Source: Candidatus Saccharimonadota bacterium (GTDB lineage: Bacteria > Patescibacteriota > Gracilibacteria > Absconditabacterales > Absconditicoccaceae). From it: a stretch of 32,000 nucleotides of DNA. The notes below the pieces were generated by a model that was given only the letters and a program-made list of their open reading frames with translations, made no database searches and had not been told where the DNA came from. Position numbers and translations under genes: made by a program. The stretch covers positions 1,140,001 to 1,172,000 of the forward strand of contig CP006913.1 in assembly GCA_000503875.1 (NCBI GenBank), in the 5' to 3' direction. Below are positions 4,893-31,563 of the stretch, one piece after another (the first letter of the stretch is position 1; each line of letters starts with the position of its first letter).

Positions 4893-5065
4893 ATATATAA
4901 ATCAGAATATAAATTAGGTTAAACTTATAGTTTTTTATTTGGATGTAAAGACAAACTTTTTTGCTTCCTGTTGATTCGCTTCACAGAAAATATATATCTT
5001 TGTCGTAACTTTTTTGGGAAATATACGTATCACATAATGAATTTTTATCTTTTTATTATTGTTTC

Positions 5066-6193
5066 ATGAAAACAAAATTACTCGTGGCGATCTTGGGATT
5101 GTCCGTATTAAGCTTTTGAGGAGCTTCATTTGCAAGTGAATCTTGCACAACCTATTATGATGGATGTAATACTTGTACGGTTGCTAATTGAAAAGTAGCT
5201 TGTACAAAAATGGCATGTAAAGCAACACAAAAACCACAATGTGCTGATGGTATAGAAATTGATGTTCTGCCAATAGAACCAACGACGTCTTCTTCAGAAA
5301 AAGTAGATCGAGTACCTCCTTATCAAGGAAATAAAACGTACAAATTTGACGAAAAGGCAGTAAATGCATTAAATCTTAAAGACAGTTCTTTGTTGAAACT
5401 CAATTGTGATAGTACAACTGTTCTCAAATCTCTTGGATTTGCAGGAAATACAAAAATGTTTTCTGTAGGATTGGAAGAAGATACTTTCGATTATACGTTT
5501 GATATGAGAAATTGTAGTATGCGAGGAACCAAAAGAAATTATACATGGACAAATAATGCTGTTACCGAAAAAACTGCTTTAGCAAAAGCAAAAGAATTTA
5601 TGAAAAGTTCATTCTTTAAAGGAAAAATATTTGATAAATATGGAGAACCTATCGTGATGTATAGAAATACAAATGGTGGTGTAATGCCGTACAGAATAGA
5701 AAAAGCAGATTCTAAAATGATGTCTGATATAGAAATTGATCCAAATGATACAGGAATTTTGGAACCAGAATTTGTTTCTTTTAGCATTTTGTTTCCTTAC
5801 ACAATCAATAACAAACCAGTCTATAATGCATATGGAAATAAAGCTGGAATTACTCTCGAAGTAACTGCCGAGTGAGTAACTAGTGTAAATGCTCAATTGC
5901 TTCCATTCAAAGGAGCTGTGAGATCTTCAGAAAAACTAAGCAATGATGATATGGTTTCTTTTGTGAAGAGAGGTGGAAATAATCCTTTCCGAGGAAATCA
6001 AGCAGAAATTGAACTTCAAAGCCCAGAAAGAGTTAATGTGTTGTTCAACGTTTGGAGAAACAATACAAACGAAGTTTATCTTTCTTCTGGAATTAGATTT
6101 GGAAGCAAGGTTAAATTAGATCAATTTAATCCACAAAACTATGAAATGATAATTTCTGATTACAAAATTTGAAATGGTAGTTATGGGTACTAA
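5066..6193 (+). CDS. Secreted hypothetical protein with a Cys-rich N-terminal module
   Basis: Signal peptide MKTKLLVAILGLSVLSFGGASFA, then SESCTTYYDGCNTCTVANGKVACTKMACKATQKPQC. Track ORFs 5210.. and 5897.. share one frame and are joined by Gly-TGA. The protein ends ...DYKIGNGSYGY with TAA 6191-6193. Confidence 0.75.
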
Positions 6194-15573: not shown

Positions 15574-16935
15574 TTATTTACTACGCCAGATTTCTTGGCC
15601 ATCTAATTTCAACCAAAGAACTTCTTTGTTTTCGTATTCGTTCTTCTTCCAAAAGATTGCATAGCGTTTTTTGTCTGCACGAAGTAATGCAATAAAAGGC
15701 ATACTTCTTTCATCTTCAGGAAGACATCCCTTTTTAATGATTTTAGCCTGTTTGGTTAAGGCACTATCTAACTCGGCATAAACATAATCAATAACGAATT
15801 TATTAAGAGGAGATTCTCCTTCTTTTTCAATTACATCCATGCGGATGTTTTCATTATCTATACATTTAAAACGATTCTTAAAAAGAGGAACACTTGTCCA
15901 ATATCTTTGGTATGCACCAAGTTGAATTTCTCCCCTGAAAGGAACAAGTTCTAATTTTTCTAATTCAATTAAAAGTTGTTCTCTAGCGGTGATTGTATCA
16001 ATAGGTGTAGGTATAACTTGTCTCGTGAGCGTATCCAATGGAATACTATCCGATTTAGGAATTGTATCCAATACAGGAACACTGTCCAGTTGTATTGAAT
16101 CAAGTTTCGGAATAAATACAGGTTTTGTTAAGCTGTAAATGTCGTATCCACCTGATCCACCAGGACGATCAGATGCAAAATAATATAGGGAGTCAGTTTG
16201 TTTCCTAACATCTATAGTATTGCATCCAGAGATGTTAATAGGATAAGGAAGCTTTTGTGGAGCTTGCCATTCCCCATCAACAAAGAGAGATCGATATACA
16301 CAAAACCATCCATCCCGGTTGGAATTAAAATATAACTCTTTTCCGTTTGGAGTAATCCAAACACCATTCTCATCAAATGATGAATTGAGTATCTCTACAG
16401 GAACTGGTTTTTCTTTTCCTGTTTGAAAGTAGATGTCATAATTACCACTACGATTGCTCGTAAAATAAAGAGAATCTCCTTTTGTAGCTATACTATTTTC
16501 ATCATAATCGGAATTGATGTAAGGAACTTCTTGTAATGATTCTATGCTAATTCCTTGTTTCCTTGGAGCCATAAACAACTTTCCTTGGTCATTGAAATAA
16601 CCTCGATAAAAAAACCAATACTTATTAGACATACCAACCAATGCTGAATTTGCATCGATATTGGCACTGCCATAACTAAGTTTCTTTACCTTACCAAAGC
16701 TAGTATCTGCCATCTGTGTATAATACACCTTCTCTGTATATTCCAGAAGTCTATCTTCACGATTATTTCTTCGTTTAGAAGTAAACAACAACATAGAATC
16801 TACAGGAAAAGGTGAATACTCTGCAGCAACCGAATTGATGTCTAGATTTTTCATAACCCAGGTTGAATCCGGTTGCTGAGCAAACCCCAAAAAAGAACAA
16901 GAAACAGAATAAATAATTATCAGTAGCTTTTTCAT
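15574..16935 (-). CDS. PD40/TolB-like beta-propeller repeat protein with an unassigned C-terminal domain (third gene of the T9SS cargo triad)
   Basis: Signal peptide MKKLLIIIYSVSCSFLGFAQQ. Repeated PD40-type motifs are LLFTSKRRN, LYFTSNRSGNYDIY, LYFNSNRDGWFCVY and YYFASDRPGGSGGYDIY. The C-terminal ~130 aa begins FRGEIQLGAYQRY. No TGA. Stop is TAA. Confidence 0.8.
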   Translation of the reverse strand: MKKLLIIIYSVSCSFLGFAQQPDSTWVMKNLDINSVAAEYSPFPVDSMLLFTSKRRNNREDRLLEYTEKVYYTQMADTSFGKVKKLSYGSANIDANSALVGMSNKYWFFYRGYFNDQGKLFMAPRKQGISIESLQEVPYINSDYDENSIATKGDSLYFTSNRSGNYDIYFQTGKEKPVPVEILNSSFDENGVWITPNGKELYFNSNRDGWFCVYRSLFVDGEWQAPQKLPYPINISGCNTIDVRKQTDSLYYFASDRPGGSGGYDIYSLTKPVFIPKLDSIQLDSVPVLDTIPKSDSIPLDTLTRQVIPTPIDTITAREQLLIELEKLELVPFRGEIQLGAYQRYWTSVPLFKNRFKCIDNENIRMDVIEKEGESPLNKFVIDYVYAELDSALTKQAKIIKKGCLPEDERSMPFIALLRADKKRYAIFWKKNEYENKEVLWLKLDGQEIWRSK

Positions 16936-16941
16936 ACGCTA

Positions 16942-17823
16942 CTATTTAGAGGATTTCGAATAAGGAAGCTTTAGCATTAAGACAACCTCATGTTTGGTAA
17001 ACGAATAACCATATACGTCACCAAATGAATAAGAGCCGCAATACCCAAATGATATATTTTGGACATTAATTCCAAAACCACCTTTTATCGTATTTGCAGA
17101 TGCATATCCTATGCTAAAAAGAATATCCTTATTGAGAATAAATTTTCCAGATACCCCATATTGTACGCTACTGAAAGTTTGTGTGATAACATATCCACTT
17201 CCCTCCAAGAACAATACATTTTCCATCAAAGTAAATCTGTACATACCACTAGCAGCATACGTAATATTAGTTTTGTTTTCAAAACTACTTACCATCCAAT
17301 CAGTTTGACTGGGAAGTAAATTATACGCAGCGATACCAACATAGTATCTATCTACTTGATTAAGTGCTAAACCGAAATTGGCATTAAACCAGTTTCCAGA
17401 TTCGGCACCCTGGAGAATAGGATCATCTATATCGTGTACTTCTACACGATCTCTCATTAATTTTAATTGGTTAAATCCGCCACTTAATCCAAACGAAAGT
17501 TTGGAACCACCAACAGGTACATGGTAAATAAAAGTAGCCTCAGCAGAAAGGTTTTGTAGTACGCCACCTTCTTGCGAAGCAATCTTAAATCCACCTGCAA
17601 CCCGTTGATTATTAAACGGTGAACTCCCCCAAAACATAAAGGATTTCGGATGATAATCATAGGCACCCATTTCTGTTTGATAGAGCGTACCCAATTTTAC
17701 CATTTCATTGTATCCGCCCAAACTTGGATTGGCTAAATATGGGTCATAGCCAGCCCCTAATTGAGCGAACCCTTTCGTTGATATAAGCACTACCAACAAA
17801 AGGAAAATTCTGATTTTTTTCAT
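16942..17823 (-). CDS. PorP/SprF-family type IX secretion system membrane protein
   Basis: 293 aa with signal peptide MKKIRIFLLLVVLISTKGFAQ. It has the N-terminal YLANPSLGGY motif, alternating beta-strand-like sequence, and a position immediately downstream of a type-B CTD cargo gene. No TGA. Stop is TAG. Confidence 0.8.
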   Translation of the reverse strand: MKKIRIFLLLVVLISTKGFAQLGAGYDPYLANPSLGGYNEMVKLGTLYQTEMGAYDYHPKSFMFWGSSPFNNQRVAGGFKIASQEGGVLQNLSAEATFIYHVPVGGSKLSFGLSGGFNQLKLMRDRVEVHDIDDPILQGAESGNWFNANFGLALNQVDRYYVGIAAYNLLPSQTDWMVSSFENKTNITYAASGMYRFTLMENVLFLEGSGYVITQTFSSVQYGVSGKFILNKDILFSIGYASANTIKGGFGINVQNISFGYCGSYSFGDVYGYSFTKHEVVLMLKLPYSKSSK

Positions 17824-17842
17824 TGTAATATATTTTTGTTGG

Positions 17843-20401
17843 TTAGTACAATATAGTTATTGTTTTCCAATATGGTTTTTCAGAACCATCTTGTTTAACA
17901 ACTTTTAAGTATAAATAAACAAGTGATCCGGAAGCAACAAGATTACCATTTTTATTCTTGGCATCCCAAATGGTCTGAGAAGGATCTGTTGATGTAAAGA
18001 TTTCGCCATCTTTGTTTTGGATAACAAGTACTATTGAGATAGCATTGTTACACAAAGAACTAAAATCCAATACGTCATTATCTCCATCTCCATTTGGAGT
18101 AACAAGATTGGGAATAGCTACACCATTTCCTGCCATAATTTCGACAGAATCTGTTGTAACACAACCATTATTATCGGTTATTTGCACATAATGCCGACCA
18201 GCTGCCAAAGAATCCGCTTCCTGAGTTGTTTGAACGGGAATACCACTCCATAAGTAAGTATGCGGTGGGGTAAAATGATCCACATATTGTACTAAGGCCG
18301 TACCATCCTCGCATTCAGGACAAGAAGTATTTTCAACTCTGAAATAAGTTCTAGGATGATCAGGTTGTTCAATAATAACCTTTTCCATAGAGATACATCC
18401 ATTATCATCGGTAACCGTTACATCATAAGACCCTGCCTTCAGTCTATCAATAATAAAACTGTTTGCGGGAGTTGTAATAGTAACCGTAGTATCAACACCT
18501 AAATAATTAGTTCCATCAAGTACTAATGTACTATTTGGTCCAGAGGTACCACCTGATACATTCACTTCAACACTTCCTCGTCCATCATAGCATAGGCTAT
18601 GGGTTGGGTTAATAGTTACTACCAAAGGGAGTGGTTGTACAAACGTAATAGTGGTATCAAAGTCACAAGTTCCATTTGAAATACGAACCAGATGATCACC
18701 AATAGGCATATCAACAAAGCTTGTAGTGTCATCAAATAACACATTTTGCGTAACTCCACCTACAGTAATATCTAGAGGAAATGCTTCCAAGTTATGAACT
18801 CTAATTATCCCTAATTCGTCGTTACACGAGATAGGAGTATTTACAAATTCAAATTGGAAATTTGCTGGATTAGTAAGTGTCCAGGTTGTGTCAAAAACAC
18901 AGCCAACACTGTCCTTAAGATGTAAGTCATAAATTCCACTACTAAGATTTGTTATAGCATTGGTATTGTTATTCATAAGTACGCCATCTTTTTTCCAGAC
19001 AAAAGAGTTTCCTCCATTACCTCCAATAACTGTTGTCGTGATACTAGCATTGGTGTATTCATAACAACCTACAGGAACAACAACATCTGTTACATGAAGT
19101 CGGGCTGGTTCATTTATTGTTACCGCTGGCGGAATAAATGTACATCCGTTTTCATCAGTAATTGTCAATGTATACGTTCCAGCAGCAAGTCCAGTAATAG
19201 AAGCAGTCGTTTGACCACTATCCCAAGAATAACTTAATTGACCAGTTCCTCCACTAAAATTGGCAGTAATAGAGCCATCATTAGCTTGGAAACAAGTCAG
19301 ATCTTTTTTAATTAGTTCTCCTTGAATAGGTGAATCAGGTTCCTTTATAATTACACTTTGATCCAAAGCACATCCTGTAGAATCTTCTACATGAATAGTA
19401 TATCTACCAGCAAATAAGTCAGTAACTGCTGCATTATTGCTAGAGAATCCACTCGGACCAGTAATTGTGTAAACAAAACCACTATAACTTCCTTCTGCAA
19501 CTGCGTTAATACGTCCCGTATTATCTCCATAACACAAAATATTTCTTTGTGTGTAGGAAATTTTTATTGGTGTAAGAACACTGTCAACCAACCAAGAATG
19601 TCGAAAACCTTTATTATCGTTTGTTACGACTTTAAAGATATTTCTCCCTGGATAAACTTCAGAAGAAAAACTTGCTACAGTATCTGCTACACTTGTTACA
19701 TACAGTGGACCAGGAAGTAATTCAACAATAGTAACCGTGTCTTCCGGGAACTGCACTTGTGCAGGTAAATTAGCAGGAACTAAAATTGGTCTTACATCAC
19801 TAATTGGCGCTGTTGCATCATAGCAAGCAGTAGAATCAATTTCGTAAGTCGTAGTAATTCCAGATAATTCATTAACAACAACAGTATCATTTCTTTGACA
19901 ACCGTTTATATCAGTAAGCGTAATAAAATACGTTCCTGAATAAAGATTATCGAAAACATTAGCTGTTTGTGTTGTTTCAATAGTAGTAGTACTATCAATC
20001 AAATTATAGGTAAACCATCCGGTTCCACCTCCAGCTGTAATAGTAATCCTCCCATTTGGCAAAGGCCAATTGGAATTAGGAACTATCGCATATGCTGCAG
20101 TGATCGCAGGAGGATTATCCAGCGTATAAGTAAATGTTTCTGTTGCCAAAAGGGCATTAGTAACAGTTACGGAATACAAAGCAGCATCCAAACCAGAAGC
20201 GACTTTCCCTGAAAGAGTTGGTATAACTATACCATTTCGTTCCCATACATACGTATAAGGAGGATTAATCAATGTAGTAGTAACGGTTATTTCACCGTCC
20301 TTACCATCATGACACTTAATGTTTTCTGTGGCAGTGATCTGTGAAAAACCAGACAGCCAAAAAAACAAAAGTACCAACGTTACAATAATTTTTTGTCTCA
20401 T
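17843..20401 (-). CDS. SprB-repeat cell-surface adhesin with a T9SS type-B sorting (gliding-motility-associated) C-terminal domain
   Basis: Signal peptide MRQKIIVTLVLLFFWLSGFSQ. About 8 repeats of ~75 aa follow the pattern C..(D/N)G.I......GG....Y.W......GL.AG.Y...(T/V)D.NGC. The C-terminus is IPNLVTPNGDGDNDVLDF...WDAKNKNGNLVASGSLVYLYLKV. No TGA in 852 codons. Stop is TAA. Confidence 0.9.
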   Translation of the reverse strand: MRQKIIVTLVLLFFWLSGFSQITATENIKCHDGKDGEITVTTTLINPPYTYVWERNGIVIPTLSGKVASGLDAALYSVTVTNALLATETFTYTLDNPPAITAAYAIVPNSNWPLPNGRITITAGGGTGWFTYNLIDSTTTIETTQTANVFDNLYSGTYFITLTDINGCQRNDTVVVNELSGITTTYEIDSTACYDATAPISDVRPILVPANLPAQVQFPEDTVTIVELLPGPLYVTSVADTVASFSSEVYPGRNIFKVVTNDNKGFRHSWLVDSVLTPIKISYTQRNILCYGDNTGRINAVAEGSYSGFVYTITGPSGFSSNNAAVTDLFAGRYTIHVEDSTGCALDQSVIIKEPDSPIQGELIKKDLTCFQANDGSITANFSGGTGQLSYSWDSGQTTASITGLAAGTYTLTITDENGCTFIPPAVTINEPARLHVTDVVVPVGCYEYTNASITTTVIGGNGGNSFVWKKDGVLMNNNTNAITNLSSGIYDLHLKDSVGCVFDTTWTLTNPANFQFEFVNTPISCNDELGIIRVHNLEAFPLDITVGGVTQNVLFDDTTSFVDMPIGDHLVRISNGTCDFDTTITFVQPLPLVVTINPTHSLCYDGRGSVEVNVSGGTSGPNSTLVLDGTNYLGVDTTVTITTPANSFIIDRLKAGSYDVTVTDDNGCISMEKVIIEQPDHPRTYFRVENTSCPECEDGTALVQYVDHFTPPHTYLWSGIPVQTTQEADSLAAGRHYVQITDNNGCVTTDSVEIMAGNGVAIPNLVTPNGDGDNDVLDFSSLCNNAISIVLVIQNKDGEIFTSTDPSQTIWDAKNKNGNLVASGSLVYLYLKVVKQDGSEKPYWKTITILY

Positions 20402-20571
20402 AAGTGGTTAATTTAATTTATATTTAATTTTTGTTTAATTTCTTTGTTAATTACCTAGCTAGATATACCCGAAAAATAAGCATTCCAGCCATCATAGTAT
20501 ATGTAGCTATTTGGCGATAAAAGTCAATACAATAATGAGAATAAATTATATAAAACAAGAAACAAATCAGA

Positions 20572-23940: not shown

Positions 23941-25374
23941 TTAAAATAGTATTTTCCAAAGTTGCCAAGAGTTTCCTTGCTGATACAAAGAGAAGCATTT
24001 TCCATTGGCTATGTTCTCAGACATTTGCTGTTCTCATAACCATATATATAAAGGTCTATTCAGATTTTTATAACTTTTTTCTAACATCTCGCATTTATAA
24101 CTTCCATCATTTTCTCGCCGCTTAATCCATTCAGTGTGGTTTCGTTTATCTAATTCAGCCATTCAAGGATTGATGTAATCTCTTTGACTCCAGCCCATAA
24201 TCCAAGGAGTATAATTTTTGTGCGAATTTATAATTATGGCATTTTCTTCTGTTCTATTTTTGATGTTTTTTATCGCAGAAAATTCTTCTTTGCTAATTAA
24301 AGGTATTGCGTTGATGTTGATATGGACAATATAATTAAACCCTACAGCCAATCCAATTATAGCAAAAATAAAAATTCAGAATTTTTTAATTTCCCATTTT
24401 TCACAAACAAATTTATATAGATTCCAAATTCCATAAGCAGCCAATATCACCACAAATATATCAAAAAAAACAATCGCTCTATTGAAATTAACCATTCTCA
24501 AGACTAGTCGTATTGCTCAAATAATATATCAAATATCTATAATTCAAAACCTTTTTCTTATGATTTTGTAAAAGAATCAAACCAAACTAAACAATAAAAC
24601 AAATCGTTGAATCTTTATATATTCGGCAATCATAATAAAATCTCAACCAGTCTGACTTGCTACAATAGTTCAAGTTGCTTTGATCGCTTCCGACATAATC
24701 TGATGCCAAATTGGGATATACATTGCAAGTCAAATAACTCCAGCTAATCATCGAAATATAGTTTGTTTCCAAGGGATTTTTTTGTTTGTATATCGCTCCA
24801 AAATCCAAGATCAAAAAAGAAGCAATCATGTATATAACGCAGTATGTTTATGGAGTAAAATAATAATCAAAAACAAAATAGATTGTCGCAATACTTTGTT
24901 TTTTTGTATAAAGATTAGGACTAGCAGCATAAGATTGACAGCAATAATCTGCTTAAAATATCCTCGCCAAAATACCTGATAGCCGACAATTGACATCCAA
25001 TACAGCCAAGCTCATATTACTCACATCCATTTGTTTTCTTTTTTCAATAACACAAAAATCAGAACTCATGGAAGGAGGTTGATTATTCATATTCATCGGG
25101 TTAGCCACCAATCAAAGTTCGCTCACATTTTGCCAAAAATTGCCATTATTGTTCCAAGTAACGGTTCATGTCTCACCCACCCAGGAAGCAGAGAAAAATC
25201 AAAATTCCACAAAATCTTGGAATATTCTACAAAAATTCATTTGTACATTCCTGGGTCATAGCCTAGTGGAGTTTCATTTCCTACAAAGTATCGTAGTCTA
25301 TACAGTCAGAATAAAATTCAGATCCATAATAGGATCCATGTTCAATATTTTTTTCAAAAACCTCCTTTCTCCAT
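23941..25374 (-). CDS. Polytopic integral membrane protein with a C-terminal soluble domain (possible GT-C-type glycosyltransferase)
   Basis: 477 aa in one minus-strand frame with over 25 Gly-TGAs, checked codon by codon with no TAA/TAG. It reads MEKGGFGKKYGTWILLWIGILFGLY...PLGYDPGMYKG..., has about 10 hydrophobic segments, and ends ...YTPWIMGWSQRDYINPGMAELDKRNHTEW.... The track shows only a 62-aa fragment. Confidence 0.7.
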
Positions 25375-25406
25375 CTATATATATCAATTAAAAACTTTTT
25401 AAAAAT

Positions 25407-25435
25407 TTGACAGAAATACAAAATTTATATATAAT
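25407..25435 (+). promoter_or_regulatory. Consensus sigma70-type promoter
   Basis: TTGACA (25407-25412), N17, TATAAT (25430-25435), 35 nt upstream of ATG 25470. Confidence 0.7.
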
Positions 25436-25469
25436 TAGATTAATATTTTTTATTTATATATTTTTTGTT

Positions 25470-26912
25470 ATGAAGAAAACAACAGAAAAGGACTCTTTGG
25501 TTTCTCAGATCAAAGCGATTCCAAATCAAGTTAAAATTTTTGTTTTGGGATTGTTTGTGGTAGTTTTGGCTCTTGTTAGTGTTTTGCCTAACTTAAATTA
25601 TAAATTCCTTCAAGGAAGCATTTTAAATATAAAAACAGAATCAAAAGTTAATGGTTATGGTTATTGATATGGTTATGAACCTCCATATGTTTTTGTAGAT
25701 GATGATTGATATGGATATGGTTATCAAGTAGATGAAAACACTAAAAAATATATTAGAATTAGAAATATTGAATTTTATTTTGATAATATGTCTGATATAT
25801 TAACTGTAAAAGTAATATATAGTCCAAGATATGAAGGCACTATGATTGTAGAACCATCTATTTATCTTGTTGAGCCAGCACAAATAAATTATTGAACCAC
25901 AAATCCATCATATATTGGGAAATGTTTGGTTTTGGAAAACAATGATATTTGTATTATGAAACAACAATTTACTATAAATAGAACATTGCATGGAAATCAA
26001 ATAAAAGTAACACCAGTATTTAAAACAAGAGTTACTGCAGTATCAAATAATGATCAAAGAGCTTTATGACAAATAATAATCGATAATGCCAGCACAAATA
26101 CAACTTGTCAAACACCAGAAAACATATTAGCGTGTTCTTTGCATTTAACATCTTGTCCAAGTGAATGTAGACCAGCTCAATGTCAAACACCAGAAAATGT
26201 ATTAGCGTGTTCTTTGGGGTTAGATTCTTGTCCACAAGAATGTATATATAATTGAAATACTACTTTAACAGGGAATGTTTGTCAAACACCAGAAAATGTA
26301 TTAGCATGTTCTTTGCATTTAGCATCTTGTCCACAAGAATGTAGACCAGCCCAATGTCAAATACCAGAGAATGTATTAGCGTGTTCTTTAGGGTTAGATT
26401 CTTGTCCACAAGAATGTATATATGGAGCAACTTCAGGAAACACAACATCATACTGGACTAACTGGCTCAATAGAGATGGTCCATCTGGAAACGGAGATTA
26501 TGAAACATATGCTGATTTTATGCCAGTTCCTTGTAAAGATGGATATCAACCAATTGATGTAAAATTTATTCGTGCTGACGAAAGTGAAACAACACAAACT
26601 ATTCATTTTTCATCGAAAGGTGGGTATTGTTTAAATAGTGAAAATTCAAAATGATGTGCAGATTATAAAGTGAAATTCTTTTGTGAAAAAACAGGAAGCA
26701 AACCAACGATTATTGAAAAGCCAAAAGAAACACCAAGAGTTATTGAACAACCAAAGGTTGTAGAAACACCGATAGTTATAGAAAAGCCAAGAACTGTAAA
26801 AGAAGCAATAACTATAGAAGCTAAACCAACACCAAAGACAAAAGAAACGATTGAAACTAAAACTACAGCAGAATCAACAATTTTAGATATTTTCAAAGAT
26901 CTTTTAAAATAA
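25470..26912 (+). CDS. Membrane-anchored surface protein: GY repeats, 4 Cys-rich repeats, WxxW (mucin-2-type) domain, Pro/Lys/Glu-rich tail
   Basis: 480 aa. The signal anchor is VKIFVLGLFVVVLALVSVL. GYGYGYGY...GYGYGY follows. CQTPENVLACSL.L.SCP.EC occurs four times. YWTNWLNRDGPSGNGDYETYADFMPVPCKDGYQPIDVKF...GGYCLNSENSKGCADYKVKFFC (26451-26684) fits the WxxW domain pattern. The tail reads KPTIIEKPKETPRVIEQPKVVETPIVIEKPR. Stop is TAA 26910-26912. Confidence 0.85.
26106..26423 (+). repeat. In-frame tandem duplication: two ~144-bp super-repeats (period 174 bp), each made of two 69-75-bp Cys-rich units
   Basis: Units lie at 26106-26180, 26181-26249, 26280-26354 and 26355-26423. 26106-26249 and 26280-26423 differ at only about ten positions. 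Confidence 0.9.
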
Positions 26913-27026: not shown

Positions 27027-29411
27027 ATGGCAGACAATCTAGTTATCGTGGAGTCTCCTGCGAAATCACAAACAATCAAAAAGTTTCTTTGACCAGATTA
27101 TGAGGTGAAAGCGTCCTTCGGACACGTAGTAGATCTTCCTCAAAAATCATTGGGAATCGATATAGAAAATAATTTTCAGCCACAATACGAAGTCTCTCCT
27201 GACAAGAAAAAAGTAATTTCAGAACTTAAATCCTTAGCAAAAAATGCCAAAAAGGTATGGATCGCTACCGATGAAGACCGCGAGGGAGAAGCTATCGGAC
27301 GACACGTAGCCAACCAATTAGGATTAGATATCAAAAAGACATCAAGAATCGTATTTCACGAAATTACTAAAGATGCAATCCAACACGCTGTAGCAAATCC
27401 AAGAACATTAGATATGCATTTAGTTGATGCTCAGCAGGCAAGAAGAGTCCTCGATAGACTTGTTTGATTCGAATTGTCACCGGTGCTCCGAAGAAAAATT
27501 AAAGCAGGTCTCAGTGCCTGAAGAGTACAATCAGTTGCGGTAAGATTGATTGTTGAAAGAGAAAGAGAAATACAAAAATTCGAATCAGAATCTAGCTTTA
27601 AAGTAGTTGGATTTTTTATAGGAGATGCAAAACAACCATTCAAAGCAGAACTTTCTAAAGAATTCAAAACCCAGCCAGAAGCCCAAAGCTTCTTGGAAGA
27701 AATAAAAGCAGCATTATACAATATCTCAGATATCGAGGTGAAACCAGGTAAAAAATCACCTTCAGCTCCATTTACAACATCAACACTTCAACAAGAAGCA
27801 AGTCGTAAAATGGGATTTCCTGTTGCCAGAACCATGCAAGTTGCTCAGAAATTATACGAAGCAGGATTGATTACCTACATGAGAACTGATTCCGTAAATC
27901 TTTCTGAAACAGCAATCGCTGCGTGTCAGCAAGAAATTACAAAACTCTATGGAAAGGATTATTCCAAACCAACAAACTATGTGACCAAATCAAAAGGCTC
28001 ACAAGAAGCGCATGAATGTATCAGACCTACGCATATGGAAAATTCAGTAGCAGGAGCAGATCCTCAAGAAAAAAAACTCTATGAACTGATTTGGAAAAGA
28101 ACATTAGCTTCTCAAATGGCCCCAGCCGAAGTAGAAAAGACTAAGGCTACGATAGATATATCAACCAGTAAACTAAAATTTATCGCCACAGGAGAAGTAA
28201 TTAAATTCGAATGATTTCTCAAAGTATATATGGAATCTCATGATGACGAAGATGATCAAAATCAAGAAGGAATGTTACCAATTTTGAAAAAAGGAGAACT
28301 CTTGACGATGCAATCAATTCTTGCGGGTCAAAAATTCAAAAACCATCCACCAAGATATACAGAAGCAAGTCTGGTTAAAAAGCTTGAAGAGCTAGGAATT
28401 TGACGTCCGTCTACTTATGCACCGACAATTTCTACGATTCAAAAAAGAGGATACGTGGTGAAAGAAGATAGACCGGGGGAACAGAGATCTTTTGTCGAGA
28501 TGATCCTCAAAGCCGGACAAATTACCACAGAAACCAAAAAACAGATGACCGGTGCCGAGAAACAAAAGCTGTTCCCAACTGATATTGGGATGGTTGTTAC
28601 TGATTTTCTCGTAGAACATTTTTCTGATATTATGGATTATAACTTCACAGCAAATGTAGAAGAAGATTTCGATAAAATCGCAGAAAATCAATTACAACGA
28701 CAAGATATGATGCTCAATTTTTATGGATCATTTCATGCATCGGTTGTAGATACTATGGGAAGTGCAGAAAGACAAAGCGGTGAAAGAGAGTTGGGAATTG
28801 ATCCCGTAAGTGGTAGAAAAGTAATTGCAAGGATTGGAAGGTTTGGTCCAATGGTACAAATCGGACATCAAGACGATGAAGAAAAACCAAAATTCGCATC
28901 ACTTCCAGCAGGTAAAAATATAGAAACGGTTACGATAGAAGACGCACTCAAAATGTTTGCATTACCAAGAGTTGTTGGTATGTATGAGGGGAAAGAAATG
29001 GCTGCAGCAATAGGAAGATTCTGACCATATATCAAGCGAGCATCGGTGTTCGCATCATTGCCTCGTGACGCAGGATACGACGTTTTCACGATAACTGCTG
29101 AGCAAGCCGAAACCTTGGTAAAAGCCAAAGTTGAACAAGTTCAAAATAGAAATATCAGTGCCTTCGATTACCACGGAAAACAAATCGAGGTGCTCAAAGG
29201 TCAATACGGACCATATATTAAATTTGACAAAAATAATTTCAAAATACCAAAAGGATGAAAAGATGCAACGGATCTTACCCTCGAAGATTGTATGGCTATC
29301 ATAGGTCCTAAAGCATTATGATCAGACACACCGGCAAAATCATCTGCTAAATCAGAAAAACCAAAGAAAAAAGCACCAGTTAAAAAAGCTTCACCTAAAA
29401 AGAAGAAATAA
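27027..29411 (+). CDS. topA: DNA topoisomerase I
   Basis: Toprim domain MADNLVIVESPAKSQTIKKFLG...ATDEDREGEAIG. Also DAQQARRVLDRLVGFELSPVL, SAGRVQSVA (Gly-TGA at 27519) and the active-site region LITYMRTDS. The C-terminus is Lys-rich. Five track fragments share one frame and are joined by 8 Gly-TGAs. Stop is TAA 29409-29411. Confidence 0.95.
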
Positions 29412-30424
29412 TGTACTACCTTCGATACGAGTACCTTTCAGAAAGTTTCCCGAGATGTAATGTCTTCAAAATACGTGATAACAAGGAACTCTTGCACTAC
29501 ACGATTCATGAAGATCTTTCTAATATTGTTCAACAATCCAGAGAATATCCCAAATACGATCACTTTTTCTTGCTCGACGAAAGCAGATTTTCTTTTTTTA
29601 GATGCGATGTAAATCAACTTTTTGAGGAGGAAATCACTATTCATACGCTCAATGAACTCACCAAAGAAAAAATTAGAGAGACTAAAGACGCTCATGGAAT
29701 TTGATGAGAAGTTGTGATGAATTATGTCGATACGATATTCGTAGATGGCAAAGAAAAGAAATTTCTTATTGGTCAAAAAGGTCAGATTTTCTTTAGATTA
29801 TATATTATATTTATAGCAAAAACGAGTCTGAATTTGTTTGACTCGGTCTATGGAACAACATTGGAAAAGAAAAATATAAATCTGATTCCTCAGTCATTAT
29901 ATACCTTACTATTTTTGAGAAACAATCTCAAGAAAGATAATTTTGTACTGCTGTATATTACCGAGAGCTATGCAAAAGCAATCACCGTGAAAGACGGTTT
30001 CTATGCGGGAATTGACGTGTTAAACCTCGGTATGGGAGCACTCAAACAAATGTACAAAGACAATGGCGTTGTCCAGTATCGATACAAAGAATACCAAGCA
30101 ATAGAAGCAAACCCTCTTGCAAAAGAACTGGTAGTAGAAACTCTGGAATTTTATTCACAACTCTTTTGCAAACGATTATTCGAAAAACATCTCGGCGGTA
30201 TGGATATTATTGTTATTTCTCCTATCACCAAAAACGAGCATTTCATCGAAACCTTCAACAAAGAATATAGAAAAATGAGTAACAACTATATCGTTCCTTT
30301 CCATCATTCCAACTCTCTCAATTCTTTTGGTATAGAACGAGAACCAGAAAATATGGACAGCCTCGTCTTTGTAAATCAAGAAGAAAAGATTAGAAAATTG
30401 CTGTTGGGAGAGGAGAAAAATTAA
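29411..30424 (+). CDS. Hypothetical protein (337 aa), translationally coupled to topA
   Basis: Its ATG overlaps the topA stop (TAATG). Track ORFs 29411.. and 29714.. share one frame and are joined by TGA TGA (29702-29707). No confident family assignment. Confidence 0.65.
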
Positions 30425-31419
30425 TGTAAGTTTTCTTTTTCTACATAAGAAATAAAATTATCTAAAGAAGTTTCCTTTAATAAATGTCTATCATTATTAA
30501 TTATTCATTTAATCCGGTTATTGTCTTCAGTAAAATCAAGTCTCTCTTCAGGTAAATTATGTTTATTGTTTTCTCTATCTGATAATTTTTTTGCATATCT
30601 TTTAAGGGTCATCAATAAGAATAGTCCCTCAAGATATTCTTTTGTAAAAGGAAAAGAACAATGTTTTCTATATCAAGAAAAAAATCATTCAACGTTAATT
30701 CTTCAATTTCTAATAAGTTTAGCCATTCATAAACCAATAATTTCTCTACCACTAATGCCTTCTTCATCTATAAAATAAAGATGTTCATACTGATCAAATA
30801 ATAAATTTCATGTGTGAGCATCAATCAAATCCAATCATAGATTGTTTTCTTTAGGGTCGAAAAGGATGTTAATTTTTTCTAAAATTTTTATTTGTTCTTC
30901 TGGGGAAAAAGTTTTTATTGCTTTTGAAATTCTTTTAATATGTTTAGATTTTACCTCTTCAAAATCCTCTTTTGATCTATCTTTTCTATATTGATTTGCT
31001 TGTCAAAGAATCTCTCATAGTTTATAATTTTTGTTAGGTCATTTGTATTGATGATATTCTATTGAATTGGAAATTCGTTTATAAAGCAAATATTTTCATT
31101 CTCTTCCATAATAATCAGGAAGAATATTTTTTAATTTTTTTGAATTAGTGTCTATTCGTTTGGCTTTTTTTTCTGATTCACAGATTCTCAATTTATAGGT
31201 GTTTTCTCAATCAGTTATTTTAAAGACCTCTCAACTTTGAGCGCTTTCATGATATATTTTTTCCGCTTTGAGTAGTTTATTTTTATAGTTAATTATATTA
31301 GAAAATGGTTTTGCATAAAGGTCTTCTATAAGTTCGTTTTTTTCTTTTTTAAGAAAATCATAATTTATTTTAGAAATCATATATTTAGTTTTATCTTTAA
31401 TTTTTGAGAGAATTTCCAT
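30421..31419 (-). CDS. Protein-kinase-like fold phosphotransferase (APH/choline-kinase-type motifs)
   Basis: 332 aa in a minus-strand frame with about 15 Gly-TGAs, checked with no TAA/TAG. The catalytic-loop-like LIDAHTGNLLFD is followed by YFIDEEG (D-x-E metal-binding motif). The start was chosen at ATG 31417-31419 because the upstream TTG of the track ORF is the -35 box. Confidence 0.6.
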
Positions 31420-31447
31420 AGAGGATTCTAATAATAAAAATCTAATA

Positions 31448-31476
31448 ATTATATTTGTTTTGCTTGATTTTGTCAA
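31448..31476 (-). promoter_or_regulatory. Consensus sigma70-type promoter (minus strand)
   Basis: The reverse complement reads TTGACA-N17-TATAAT, with -35 at 31471-31476 and -10 at 31448-31453. Confidence 0.7.
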
Positions 31477-31501
31477 AAAATAATAATATCAAATCAAAAA
31501 A

Positions 31502-31529
31502 TTGACAAAAAATAAAAAAGATATATAAT
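31502..31529 (+). promoter_or_regulatory. Consensus sigma70-type promoter (plus strand), divergent from the previous one
   Basis: TTGACA (31502-31507), N16, TATAAT (31524-31529), 35 nt upstream of ATG 31564. Confidence 0.65.
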
Positions 31530-31563
31530 AATGGTAGTTTTATTTGCTACCAAAAGTTTTTTT

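Follow-up and report, generated by a model that had tools for sequence, protein, structure and literature searches.

Why should a bacterium of candidate division SR1 (Absconditabacteria) carry, on a surface protein, a domain that is named after animal mucins, and is this domain really what its motifs suggest? The question arises in a window of 32,000 nucleotides (positions 1,140,001 to 1,172,000 of the forward strand of contig CP006913.1, assembly GCA_000503875.1; all coordinates below count from the first letter of this stretch), in which a preliminary description, made from the DNA letters alone, had recognized the hallmarks of the WxxW (CysD) domain at 26451-26684 and had read them as a eukaryote-type domain oddly placed in a bacterium. 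Our analysis confirms, by profile and predicted fold, a genuine domain of the CysD/WxxW fold. As a whole, the data are probably best explained by a CysD domain of a prokaryotic four-cysteine branch, which would serve as an exposed binding module on a native SR1 surface protein. The gene, the domain and the recoded codon inside it are as follows.

25470-26912, + strand: whole gene of the modular surface protein, read with genetic code 25 (ORF and TGA analysis), with its TAA stop at 26910-26912
26445-26693, + strand: WxxW/CysD domain, residues 326-408; the Pfam match, residues 329-405, corresponds to 26454-26684, and the domain holds four Cys (355, 387, 396 and 405)
26652-26654, + strand: in-frame TGA (Gly395) inside the WxxW domain, one residue ahead of the invariant Cys396, in a column that is Gly-rich in homologues

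Identity of the domain and reading of the gene

Searched against Pfam with hmmscan in its code-25 translation, the whole 480-amino-acid (aa) protein hit a single family, PF13330 (Mucin2_WxxW), at 46.5 bits (E 6e-12), and the excised domain scored 52.5 bits (E 8e-14), the gathering cut-off of the family being 22.4 bits. The match extends over residues 329-405 and covers profile positions 1-88 of 88; NCBIfam holds no model for the WxxW domain. The translation of 26451-26684 on the + strand is the peptide quoted in the preliminary description, with the Gly of codon 26652-26654 written TGA, and every hallmark motif that had been recognized there is present: W-T-N-W (W329-T-N-W332, the W-x-x-W of this copy), D-G-P-S-G-N-GD-Y-E, C355, G-Y-C-L-N, and the terminal C-A-DY-K-V-K-F-F-C, an agreement that chance would not give. 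In an alignment of 38 prokaryote-type domains, the invariant columns are W, D, D, E, C, G, C, C and C, the second Trp of WxxW being among them, and Cys 355, 387, 396 and 405 align with the four invariant Cys columns. The EC...QC pair found in six-Cys prokaryotic and in animal copies is replaced by Phe...Phe in the SR1 domain.

The predicted structure points to the same fold. An AlphaFold2 (AF2) model of residues 326-408, built on the 38-sequence alignment, has six strands, with a predicted local distance difference test score (pLDDT) of 95.2 and a predicted template modelling score (pTM) of 0.81. Foldseek comparison with the PDB matched it to MUC5AC CysD7 (8ov0; E 4.8e-5, query template modelling score [TMq] 0.82), to MUC5B (8oer_I; TMq 0.76) and to MUC2 (6tm2_E; TMq 0.70); the significant matches were CysD domains only (E≤1.4e-3), and the next-best structure had an E-value of 0.2. 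Single-sequence comparison with solved CysD chains was weak (E about 0.2). The best PDB sequence match, the Lactococcus chitinase 3ian (E 0.024), was discarded as a chance similarity, aligned through a 'YWxNW' stretch only. The CysD1 domain of MUC2 is a small 3+3 beta-sandwich with two Ca2+ ions, in which WXXW belongs to a ladder of Trp and Arg/Lys residues (PMC7599080), and the six strands of the SR1 model fit this published arrangement. D336, D343 and E345 do not vary across the 38-domain alignment, in which N389 and D398 are conserved as well; judging from the structure description of MUC2 CysD1, these residues would be the calcium ligands (PMC7599080). C-mannosylation of the WxxW Trp, proposed for animal members of the family, was not seen in recombinant MUC2 CysD1 (PMC7599080).

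When only TAA and TAG are counted as stops, the open reading frame (ORF) spans 25392-26912, and its first ATG, at 25470, gives the protein of 480 aa, which is P148_SR1C00001G1090 of candidate division SR1 bacterium RAAC1_SR1_1 (P0001; 100% identity and coverage), encoded on a 1.18-Mb contig. The gene contains six in-frame TGAs (25665, 25707, 25893, 26067, 26253 and 26652), and in-frame TGAs also occur in most other genes of the window. In this gene TGA encodes Gly: it sits within GYGYG*YGY repeats, the TGA inside the domain aligns with the Gly-rich column that precedes an invariant Cys in the 38 homologous domains, and, when native genes of the window are compared with those of a sister genome, TGA stands opposite GGN in 25 of 125 aligned Gly columns. 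Two SR1 homologues (P0002 and P0004) have a W at the position of Gly395 in table-4 style translations, which suggests a TGA at this position in them too.

The share of TGA among Gly codons differs widely by gene across the whole window: the TGA:GGN ratio is 28:15 in an ABC transporter gene (786-2528), 14:5 at 30421-31539 and 2:14 at 29399-30424.

The carrier protein and its locus

Apart from the domain, the carrier protein and the two genes that flank it comprise the following features.

23941-25374, − strand: 477-aa polytopic, Trp-rich membrane protein, divergent from the surface-protein gene and syntenic with it in two other SR1 genomes (L033 and L035)
25530-25592, + strand: hydrophobic helix of about residues 21-41, following a Lys-rich head of 20 aa; predicted signal anchor, N-in/C-out
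25650-25724, + strand: Gly-Tyr repeats (GYGYGYGY ... GYGYGY), which hold the Gly-TGAs 25665 and 25707 and are kept across the family
25725-26105, + strand: variable middle region, residues 86-212, with two Cys (152 and 161); pLDDT about 22, unalignable among family members
26105-26423, + strand: four-Cys repeat, about 25 aa long and present four times, C-Q-T-P-E-N-V-L-A-C-S-L-x-L-x-S-C-P-x-E-C
26694-26864, + strand: extended K/T/E/P/I/V-rich tail, residues 409-465; pLDDT about 30, 18-bp periodicity
26865-26909, + strand: C-terminal amphipathic helix ...TILDIFKDLLK; AF2 helix 466-479
27027-29411, + strand: topA (DNA topoisomerase I), the downstream housekeeping neighbour, which marks the orthologous locus

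The protein had been described as membrane-anchored and repeat-rich, and both features were recovered. The top Kyte-Doolittle 19-mer covers residues 21-39 and AF2 places a helix at residues 19-41, a predicted anchor conserved in nine of nine family members; from the positive-inside rule, its N terminus would lie inside the cell and its C terminus outside. Tandem Repeats Finder detected tandem repeats both in the DNA of the Cys repeats (1.8 copies of a 174-bp unit with 92% identity, each unit containing two 75-bp sub-repeats) and in the tail (period 18 at 26726-26784). The CQTPENVLACSLxLxSCPxEC motif is invariant across the SR1 family and is also found in P0012 and P0013, together with Gly-rich or GY-repeat segments; no Pfam model exists for it, and it looks like an undescribed repeat. 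No Pfam or NCBIfam match was obtained for the middle region (residues 86-212). The C-terminal helix has the motif ...ILDIFKxLLK, with the variant ...SLLxMVxNIFK in other family members; its residues I474, F475 and K476 are invariant in nine of nine members, and it may be an anchoring or sorting signal. In total the carrier contains 22 Cys, an even number.

Other modules were searched for on the 480-aa protein: hmmscan against Pfam found no VWD, C8, TIL or CTCK domain, no SLH domain (PF00395) was present on it, and neither Pfam nor NCBIfam revealed a recognisable catalytic domain. The tail, of about 60 aa, consists of K (18%), T (18%), E (17%), P (13%), I (13%) and of 2% S only. With so little Ser, and no glycosyltransferase identified beside the gene, the suggestion that the protein is probably glycosylated was not borne out.

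The surface-protein gene is native to its host, as had been proposed from its Gly-TGAs: it has six of these codons, a host-like guanine plus cytosine (GC) content (0.308, like its neighbours) and a conserved synteny. The gene order dnaJ, cmk, an unknown gene, the membrane-protein gene (on the − strand), the surface-protein gene and topA is common to the two other SR1 genomes; a third contig (L036) keeps the upstream cmk and 439-aa genes, and no topA was identified on that contig. The gene syntenic to topA in L035 encodes Toprim and Topoisom_bac domains, and TopA is 94.5% identical between the window and L035. The membrane-protein gene holds 21 TGG and 24 TGA codons, and its 477-aa product has no Pfam match even at E 10, Dpy19 included, and no NCBIfam match. 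The idea that it could be a GT-C or DPY19-like glycosyltransferase modifying the WxxW motif is thus unsupported, because it matches no such family.

The SR1 family to which the protein belongs has nine members (P0001-P0009), the eight homologues of the window protein coming from SR1-type contigs. They have in common the anchor, the GY repeats, the Cys repeats, an acidic or Pro-rich tail and the C-terminal helix. Their inserts differ: three homologues contain the WxxW domain, and others contain SLH domains (PF00395, in P0007 and P0008 only) or further beta-rich modules. In L035, the gene that lies between the membrane-protein gene and topA (L035:7001-8194; P0005, 397 aa) is the positional orthologue of the window gene; it encodes the same anchor, GY repeats and Cys repeats, with a different C-terminal half that lacks the WxxW domain. 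Because P0005 is devoid of this domain while TopA is 94.5% identical, modules are swapped faster than the core genome diverges, and the topA-adjacent locus is a fast-evolving, module-swapping surface-protein locus.

Distribution of the domain in prokaryotes and its relatives

An exhaustive phmmer search of 1.84 billion cluster representatives with the 83-residue domain returned 663 representative clusters at E≤1e-3 and 134 at E≤1e-10; PF13330 was matched by 116 of the 117 representatives that we scanned, with Peptidase_S8, Trypsin_2, Glyco_hydro_18 and PI-PLC-X as co-occurring families. The named top multi-repeat matches are from sharks, fish and cnidarians. A minority of the 663 clusters is taxonomically labelled, and unnamed proteins were assigned to prokaryotes by eye, from lipoboxes, signal peptides and fused bacterial enzyme domains. 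The prokaryotic architectures recognized in this way include S8 subtilases (P0073 and P0107), a trypsin-like protease (P0089), a GH18-like protein (P0085), a PI-PLC (P0142), a metallophosphatase-like protein, lipoproteins with lipoboxes (P0069, P0111 and P0143), and DPANN-type Cys-rich proteins with an N-terminal hydrophobic segment (P0010, P0011, P0122, P0128 and P0138).

A scan of genomes, one per GTDB species, confirmed at least 32 loci. This figure is a lower bound, as the scan used two narrow peptide patterns derived from 7 sequences and missed the source SR1 genome itself. The lineages concerned are Woesearchaeota, Nanoarchaeota and Methanosarcinales among archaea, and, among bacteria, Myxococcota (including the complete chromosome of Archangium gephyra), Acidobacteriota, Chloroflexota, Cellvibrio and other Cellvibrionaceae, Alcanivoracaceae, Agarilytica, Burkholderiales and Neisseriales; in the scanned ORFs, the domain is fused to very different secreted or surface proteins. 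A search for homologous proteins with the domain alignment gave 20 short proteins, of little use for taxonomy. By these sequence matches, the WxxW domain appears rare per genome but widespread across prokaryotes. The preliminary description had allowed that the profile might prove common in bacteria, and this applies to its spread across lineages, not to its frequency within genomes. These counts, together with nearest copies that are of the prokaryotic four-Cys type (see below), contradict the view of a eukaryote-type domain oddly placed in a bacterium. We found no mention of prokaryotic WxxW/CysD members in the literature searched; automated pipelines do pick up other such members, and public data already include a precomputed Pfam hit for the protein studied here. 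One evolutionary study placed the origin of CysD at Bilateria (PMC4948705), and cnidarian proteins with the WxxW domain were present among our sequences (P0162 and P0039; Dendronephthya gigantea).

Where do the closest relatives of the SR1 copy lie? The best per-domain scores outside SR1 were obtained for P0010 (72.6 bits), the Woesearchaeota loci L001 (70.9) and L002 (66.9), and P0011 (65.7), all of which have four Cys, have in common with SR1 the signature YCLNSEN...GC.DY.V.FYC, and are also nearest to the SR1 domain by BLOSUM distance. Taken together, the four-Cys domains of Woesearchaeota/DPANN (L001, L002, L007, P0010 and P0011) have 44-49% identity to it, at 66-73 bits, with the same four-Cys pattern. 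Their carriers resemble the SR1 protein in being Cys-rich surface proteins with an N-terminal hydrophobic segment, from small-genome, presumably symbiotic organisms. They differ from it in that their domain comes directly after the N-terminal signal or anchor, with CxDSDGG-type repeats behind it, whereas the SR1 domain stands near the C terminus after another Cys repeat, and the carriers are non-homologous outside the domain. In the secreted enzymes and lipoproteins of Myxococcota, Cellvibrionaceae, Acidobacteriota and Chloroflexota, one or two WxxW domains are found at the C terminus; there too the domain serves as an extracellular accessory, and it occurs in both four-Cys and six-Cys forms. 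Unlike the SR1 protein, in which no catalytic domain could be recognized, several of these have catalytic domains attached (S8 in P0073 and P0107, and those of P0089, P0085 and P0142).

With the CysD domains of MUC2, MUC5AC and MUC5B (PF13330; PDB 6tm2, 8ck2, 8ov0 and 8oer), the SR1 domain has in common the full profile, the predicted beta-sandwich (TM 0.70-0.82), the WxxW, DxPxGxGDxE, GxxCxN and terminal CxDYxV(R/K)FxC motifs, four Cys positions and, as far as its setting is predicted, an extracellular location beside an extended Pro/Thr-containing segment. The structural prediction that the preliminary description called for thus led, among significant matches, solely to mucin CysD domains. 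The SR1 copy differs from these by the lack of both the EC...QC pair and the Cys flanking WxxW, by its occurrence as a single copy on a membrane-anchored bacterial protein of 480 aa, by a first Trp that is dispensable in the SR1 orthologues, and by a pairwise identity of 23-26%. CILP1 and CILP2 contain a domain of the same Pfam family. These vertebrate matrix proteins are built differently, from several domains, and none of their other domains was detected on the SR1 protein.

In a neighbour-joining (NJ) bootstrap tree of 71 domains (86 columns), the SR1 clade is joined first by P0115, a copy from a bacterial lipoprotein, and next by the Woesearchaeota clade; labelled vertebrate sequences group away from SR1, and cnidarian and annelid copies are scattered. 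Such a tree can reject a well-supported animal sister group, although it does not give the direction of transfer. Of the two alternatives that had been raised, ancient origin or acquisition from a eukaryote, the data speak against the second, in the sense of a direct descent from animals. By sequence, the SR1 domain appears to belong to a prokaryotic four-cysteine branch rather than to an animal-derived one, which is compatible with exchange among prokaryotes. We would offer only as a speculation, which may well turn out to be wrong, that CysD/WxxW is an old prokaryotic extracellular module, varied in its Cys pattern and architecture over several phyla of bacteria and archaea, that was later acquired and expanded by animals (in mucins and CILP), and that the SR1 and Woesearchaeota copies record an exchange of adhesion modules between episymbionts of the candidate phyla radiation (CPR) and of DPANN living in one habitat.

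Possible role of the domain and its significance

In the role that we propose, the domain would form a six-stranded beta-sandwich with two disulfides, in which the acidic DxPxGxGDxE motif and the N/D motifs are kept. By the positive-inside rule, the N terminus would be cytoplasmic and everything past residue 41 would be outside, which fits the even number of Cys. The Cys repeats would then build a disulfide-stapled stalk, with the CysD domain near the outer end of the protein, where, stabilised by calcium, it may offer a surface for binding a protein or a glycan, and may attach the cell to such a ligand, whether this belongs to a partner cell or to the cell's own envelope. The domain would act as one exchangeable cassette of a rapidly evolving surface-protein family, whose fast turnover of modules may reflect selection on the targets to which the cell adheres or on those that recognise it. 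Elsewhere the domain is used as an accessory module, appended to secreted proteases, GH18-like, PI-PLC and metallophosphatase-like proteins and lipoproteins. On balance we lean, if only slightly, towards a binding or adhesion role, and the host-interaction module that had been suggested for this protein is plausible.

Several observations weigh against this interpretation. The first Trp of WxxW is replaced by Arg in three of the four SR1 orthologues (P0002-P0004, with L033:6001-7800 as the locus of one of them; SYRTEWLNRD), and because of this replacement in three orthologues the WxxW motif seems dispensable in SR1. The SR1 domain has four Cys, without the EC...QC pair, compared with five to nine in the matched stretch of the sampled animal copies. 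In the NJ tree of 71 domains, SR1 is monophyletic in 60% of bootstraps and its sister group is unstable; with support this weak, the tree does not settle where the SR1 copy came from. AF2 modelling of the whole protein from the alignment of the nine family members gave a poor model (pLDDT 39, pTM 0.20), with only the anchor helix, weak helical repeats, the WxxW domain and the terminal helix recognisable, and owing to these low values this model was not used for the arrangement of the modules. Lastly, the tail and the terminal helix could fold back to the envelope, and the domain would then be less exposed.

A first, narrower alternative is that the domain is a carbohydrate-binding module whose target is a polysaccharide (for example chitin, peptidoglycan or the capsule of a host). 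It is in agreement with the C-terminal position of the domain in the GH18-like P0085, with its presence in polysaccharide-degrading Cellvibrionaceae and Agarilytica, and with its conserved aromatics (W, W, Y and F), whose exposure may be surmised from the MUC2 CysD1 structure (PMC7599080). On the other hand, the conserved Trp belongs to a structural Trp-Arg ladder in MUC2 CysD1 (PMC7599080), and the domain is equally often fused to proteases, to PI-PLC and to non-enzymatic Cys-rich proteins. After a search of the literature, we know of no characterised WxxW member that binds sugar, and we regard this alternative as rather unlikely.

Alternatively, and again more narrowly, the domain could be a self-association module, through which the protein would assemble by non-covalent contacts into a coat of the mucin-like or S-layer-like kind. 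In MUC2, CysD1 serves as a protein-protein contact module that is required for filament formation (PMC7599080); in SR1, an extended tail that contains Pro and Thr comes after the domain, and two sister members of the family (P0007 and P0008) have SLH domains, which implies an association with the envelope. However, VWD1 and C8-2, the partners of MUC2 CysD1, are absent from the SR1 protein, which has a single copy of the domain, in contrast to the many copies of animal proteins; the surroundings of the gene revealed no glycosylation machinery; and the close relative L035 lacks the domain at the same locus, which would be odd for a structural element of a coat. Gel-forming mucins are built from VWD-C8-TIL units, a long Ser/Thr/Pro-rich O-glycosylated region and a C-terminal cystine knot (PMC4948705), and the SR1 protein, without VWD, C8, TIL and CTCK domains and with a tail that is not a true Ser/Thr-rich PTS region in the mucin sense, does not support the mucin-like surface layer that the preliminary description had envisaged. 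A coat made by self-association thus appears improbable.

Very much less probable is a recent capture of an animal mucin or CILP module by the SR1 bacterium. The Pfam family is named after animal proteins, the literature deals with animals, and many top-scoring multi-repeat matches come from fish, sharks and cnidarians; these points are outweighed by the nearest relatives, which are four-Cys copies of Woesearchaeota and bacteria, and by the host-like GC content, the six Gly-TGA codons (one of them in the domain) and the synteny in other SR1 genomes. Moreover, the SR1 copy has four Cys, as many bacterial copies do, and lacks the Cys just before WxxW of labelled fish and shark copies, a Cys that a cnidarian copy lacks as well. 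The RAAC1 genome reportedly comes from aquifer sediment, not from an animal host. Finally, that the PF13330 match is spurious, by chance in a Cys-rich low-complexity protein or as an artefact of TGA read-through, might be argued from the weak single-sequence comparison with solved CysD chains (E 0.2), and is practically discounted by the full-length profile match (E 1e-12 to 1e-14), the 134 representative hits at E≤1e-10, the confident model with its specific fold match, and the independent support for TGA as Gly.

Two other parts of the window are of interest in themselves. On the − strand at 15574-20407, three genes form a cargo cassette of the Bacteroidota-type type IX secretion system (T9SS), encoding an SprB-repeat protein that ends in a CHU_C type-B C-terminal domain, a PorP/SprF protein and a PD40-repeat protein. 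The cassette has no in-frame TGA in about 1,600 codons (126 GGN), whereas every flanking gene holds TGA, and its GC content is 35-37% compared with about 30%. An SprB/CHU_C gene, TGA-free there too, lies beside dnaJ in L033:1-1026 (− strand) and L035:1-1958 (− strand). Between the window and L035, TGA/GGN turnover affects 5 of 49, 13 of 53 and 7 of 23 Gly columns in native genes and 0 of 51 in the SprB gene, whose proteins are 88% identical and whose synonymous divergence, counted as the share of identical-residue codons that differ, is 10% versus 18-34% in native genes. On these grounds, the T9SS-like cassette is not a misassembly; nothing relevant to T9SS genes in SR1 was found in the literature searched. 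At 5009-6193 (+ strand), a gene encodes a secreted protein of 375 aa with an N-terminal Cys-rich segment, which ends in GNGSYGY and has weak, sub-threshold matches to Pacifastin_I (E 7e-4) and VWC (E 7e-3).

What the surface-protein gene shows is neither a gene transfer from animals to bacteria nor a bacterial mucin. The domain family and its fold were known; the breadth of prokaryotic CysD and the module-swapping SR1 locus are under-appreciated. For mucin biology, this means that the prokaryotic relatives of CysD, a signature module of gel-forming mucins, are many, and the small, simple four-Cys versions from bacteria might serve as convenient systems in which to study the calcium and ligand chemistry of the fold. 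For the biology of the CPR, SR1 has a fast-evolving surface-protein locus next to topA, in which modules are swapped between close relatives, and this locus is an obvious candidate for attachment to a host or partner in organisms that are thought to be episymbiotic.

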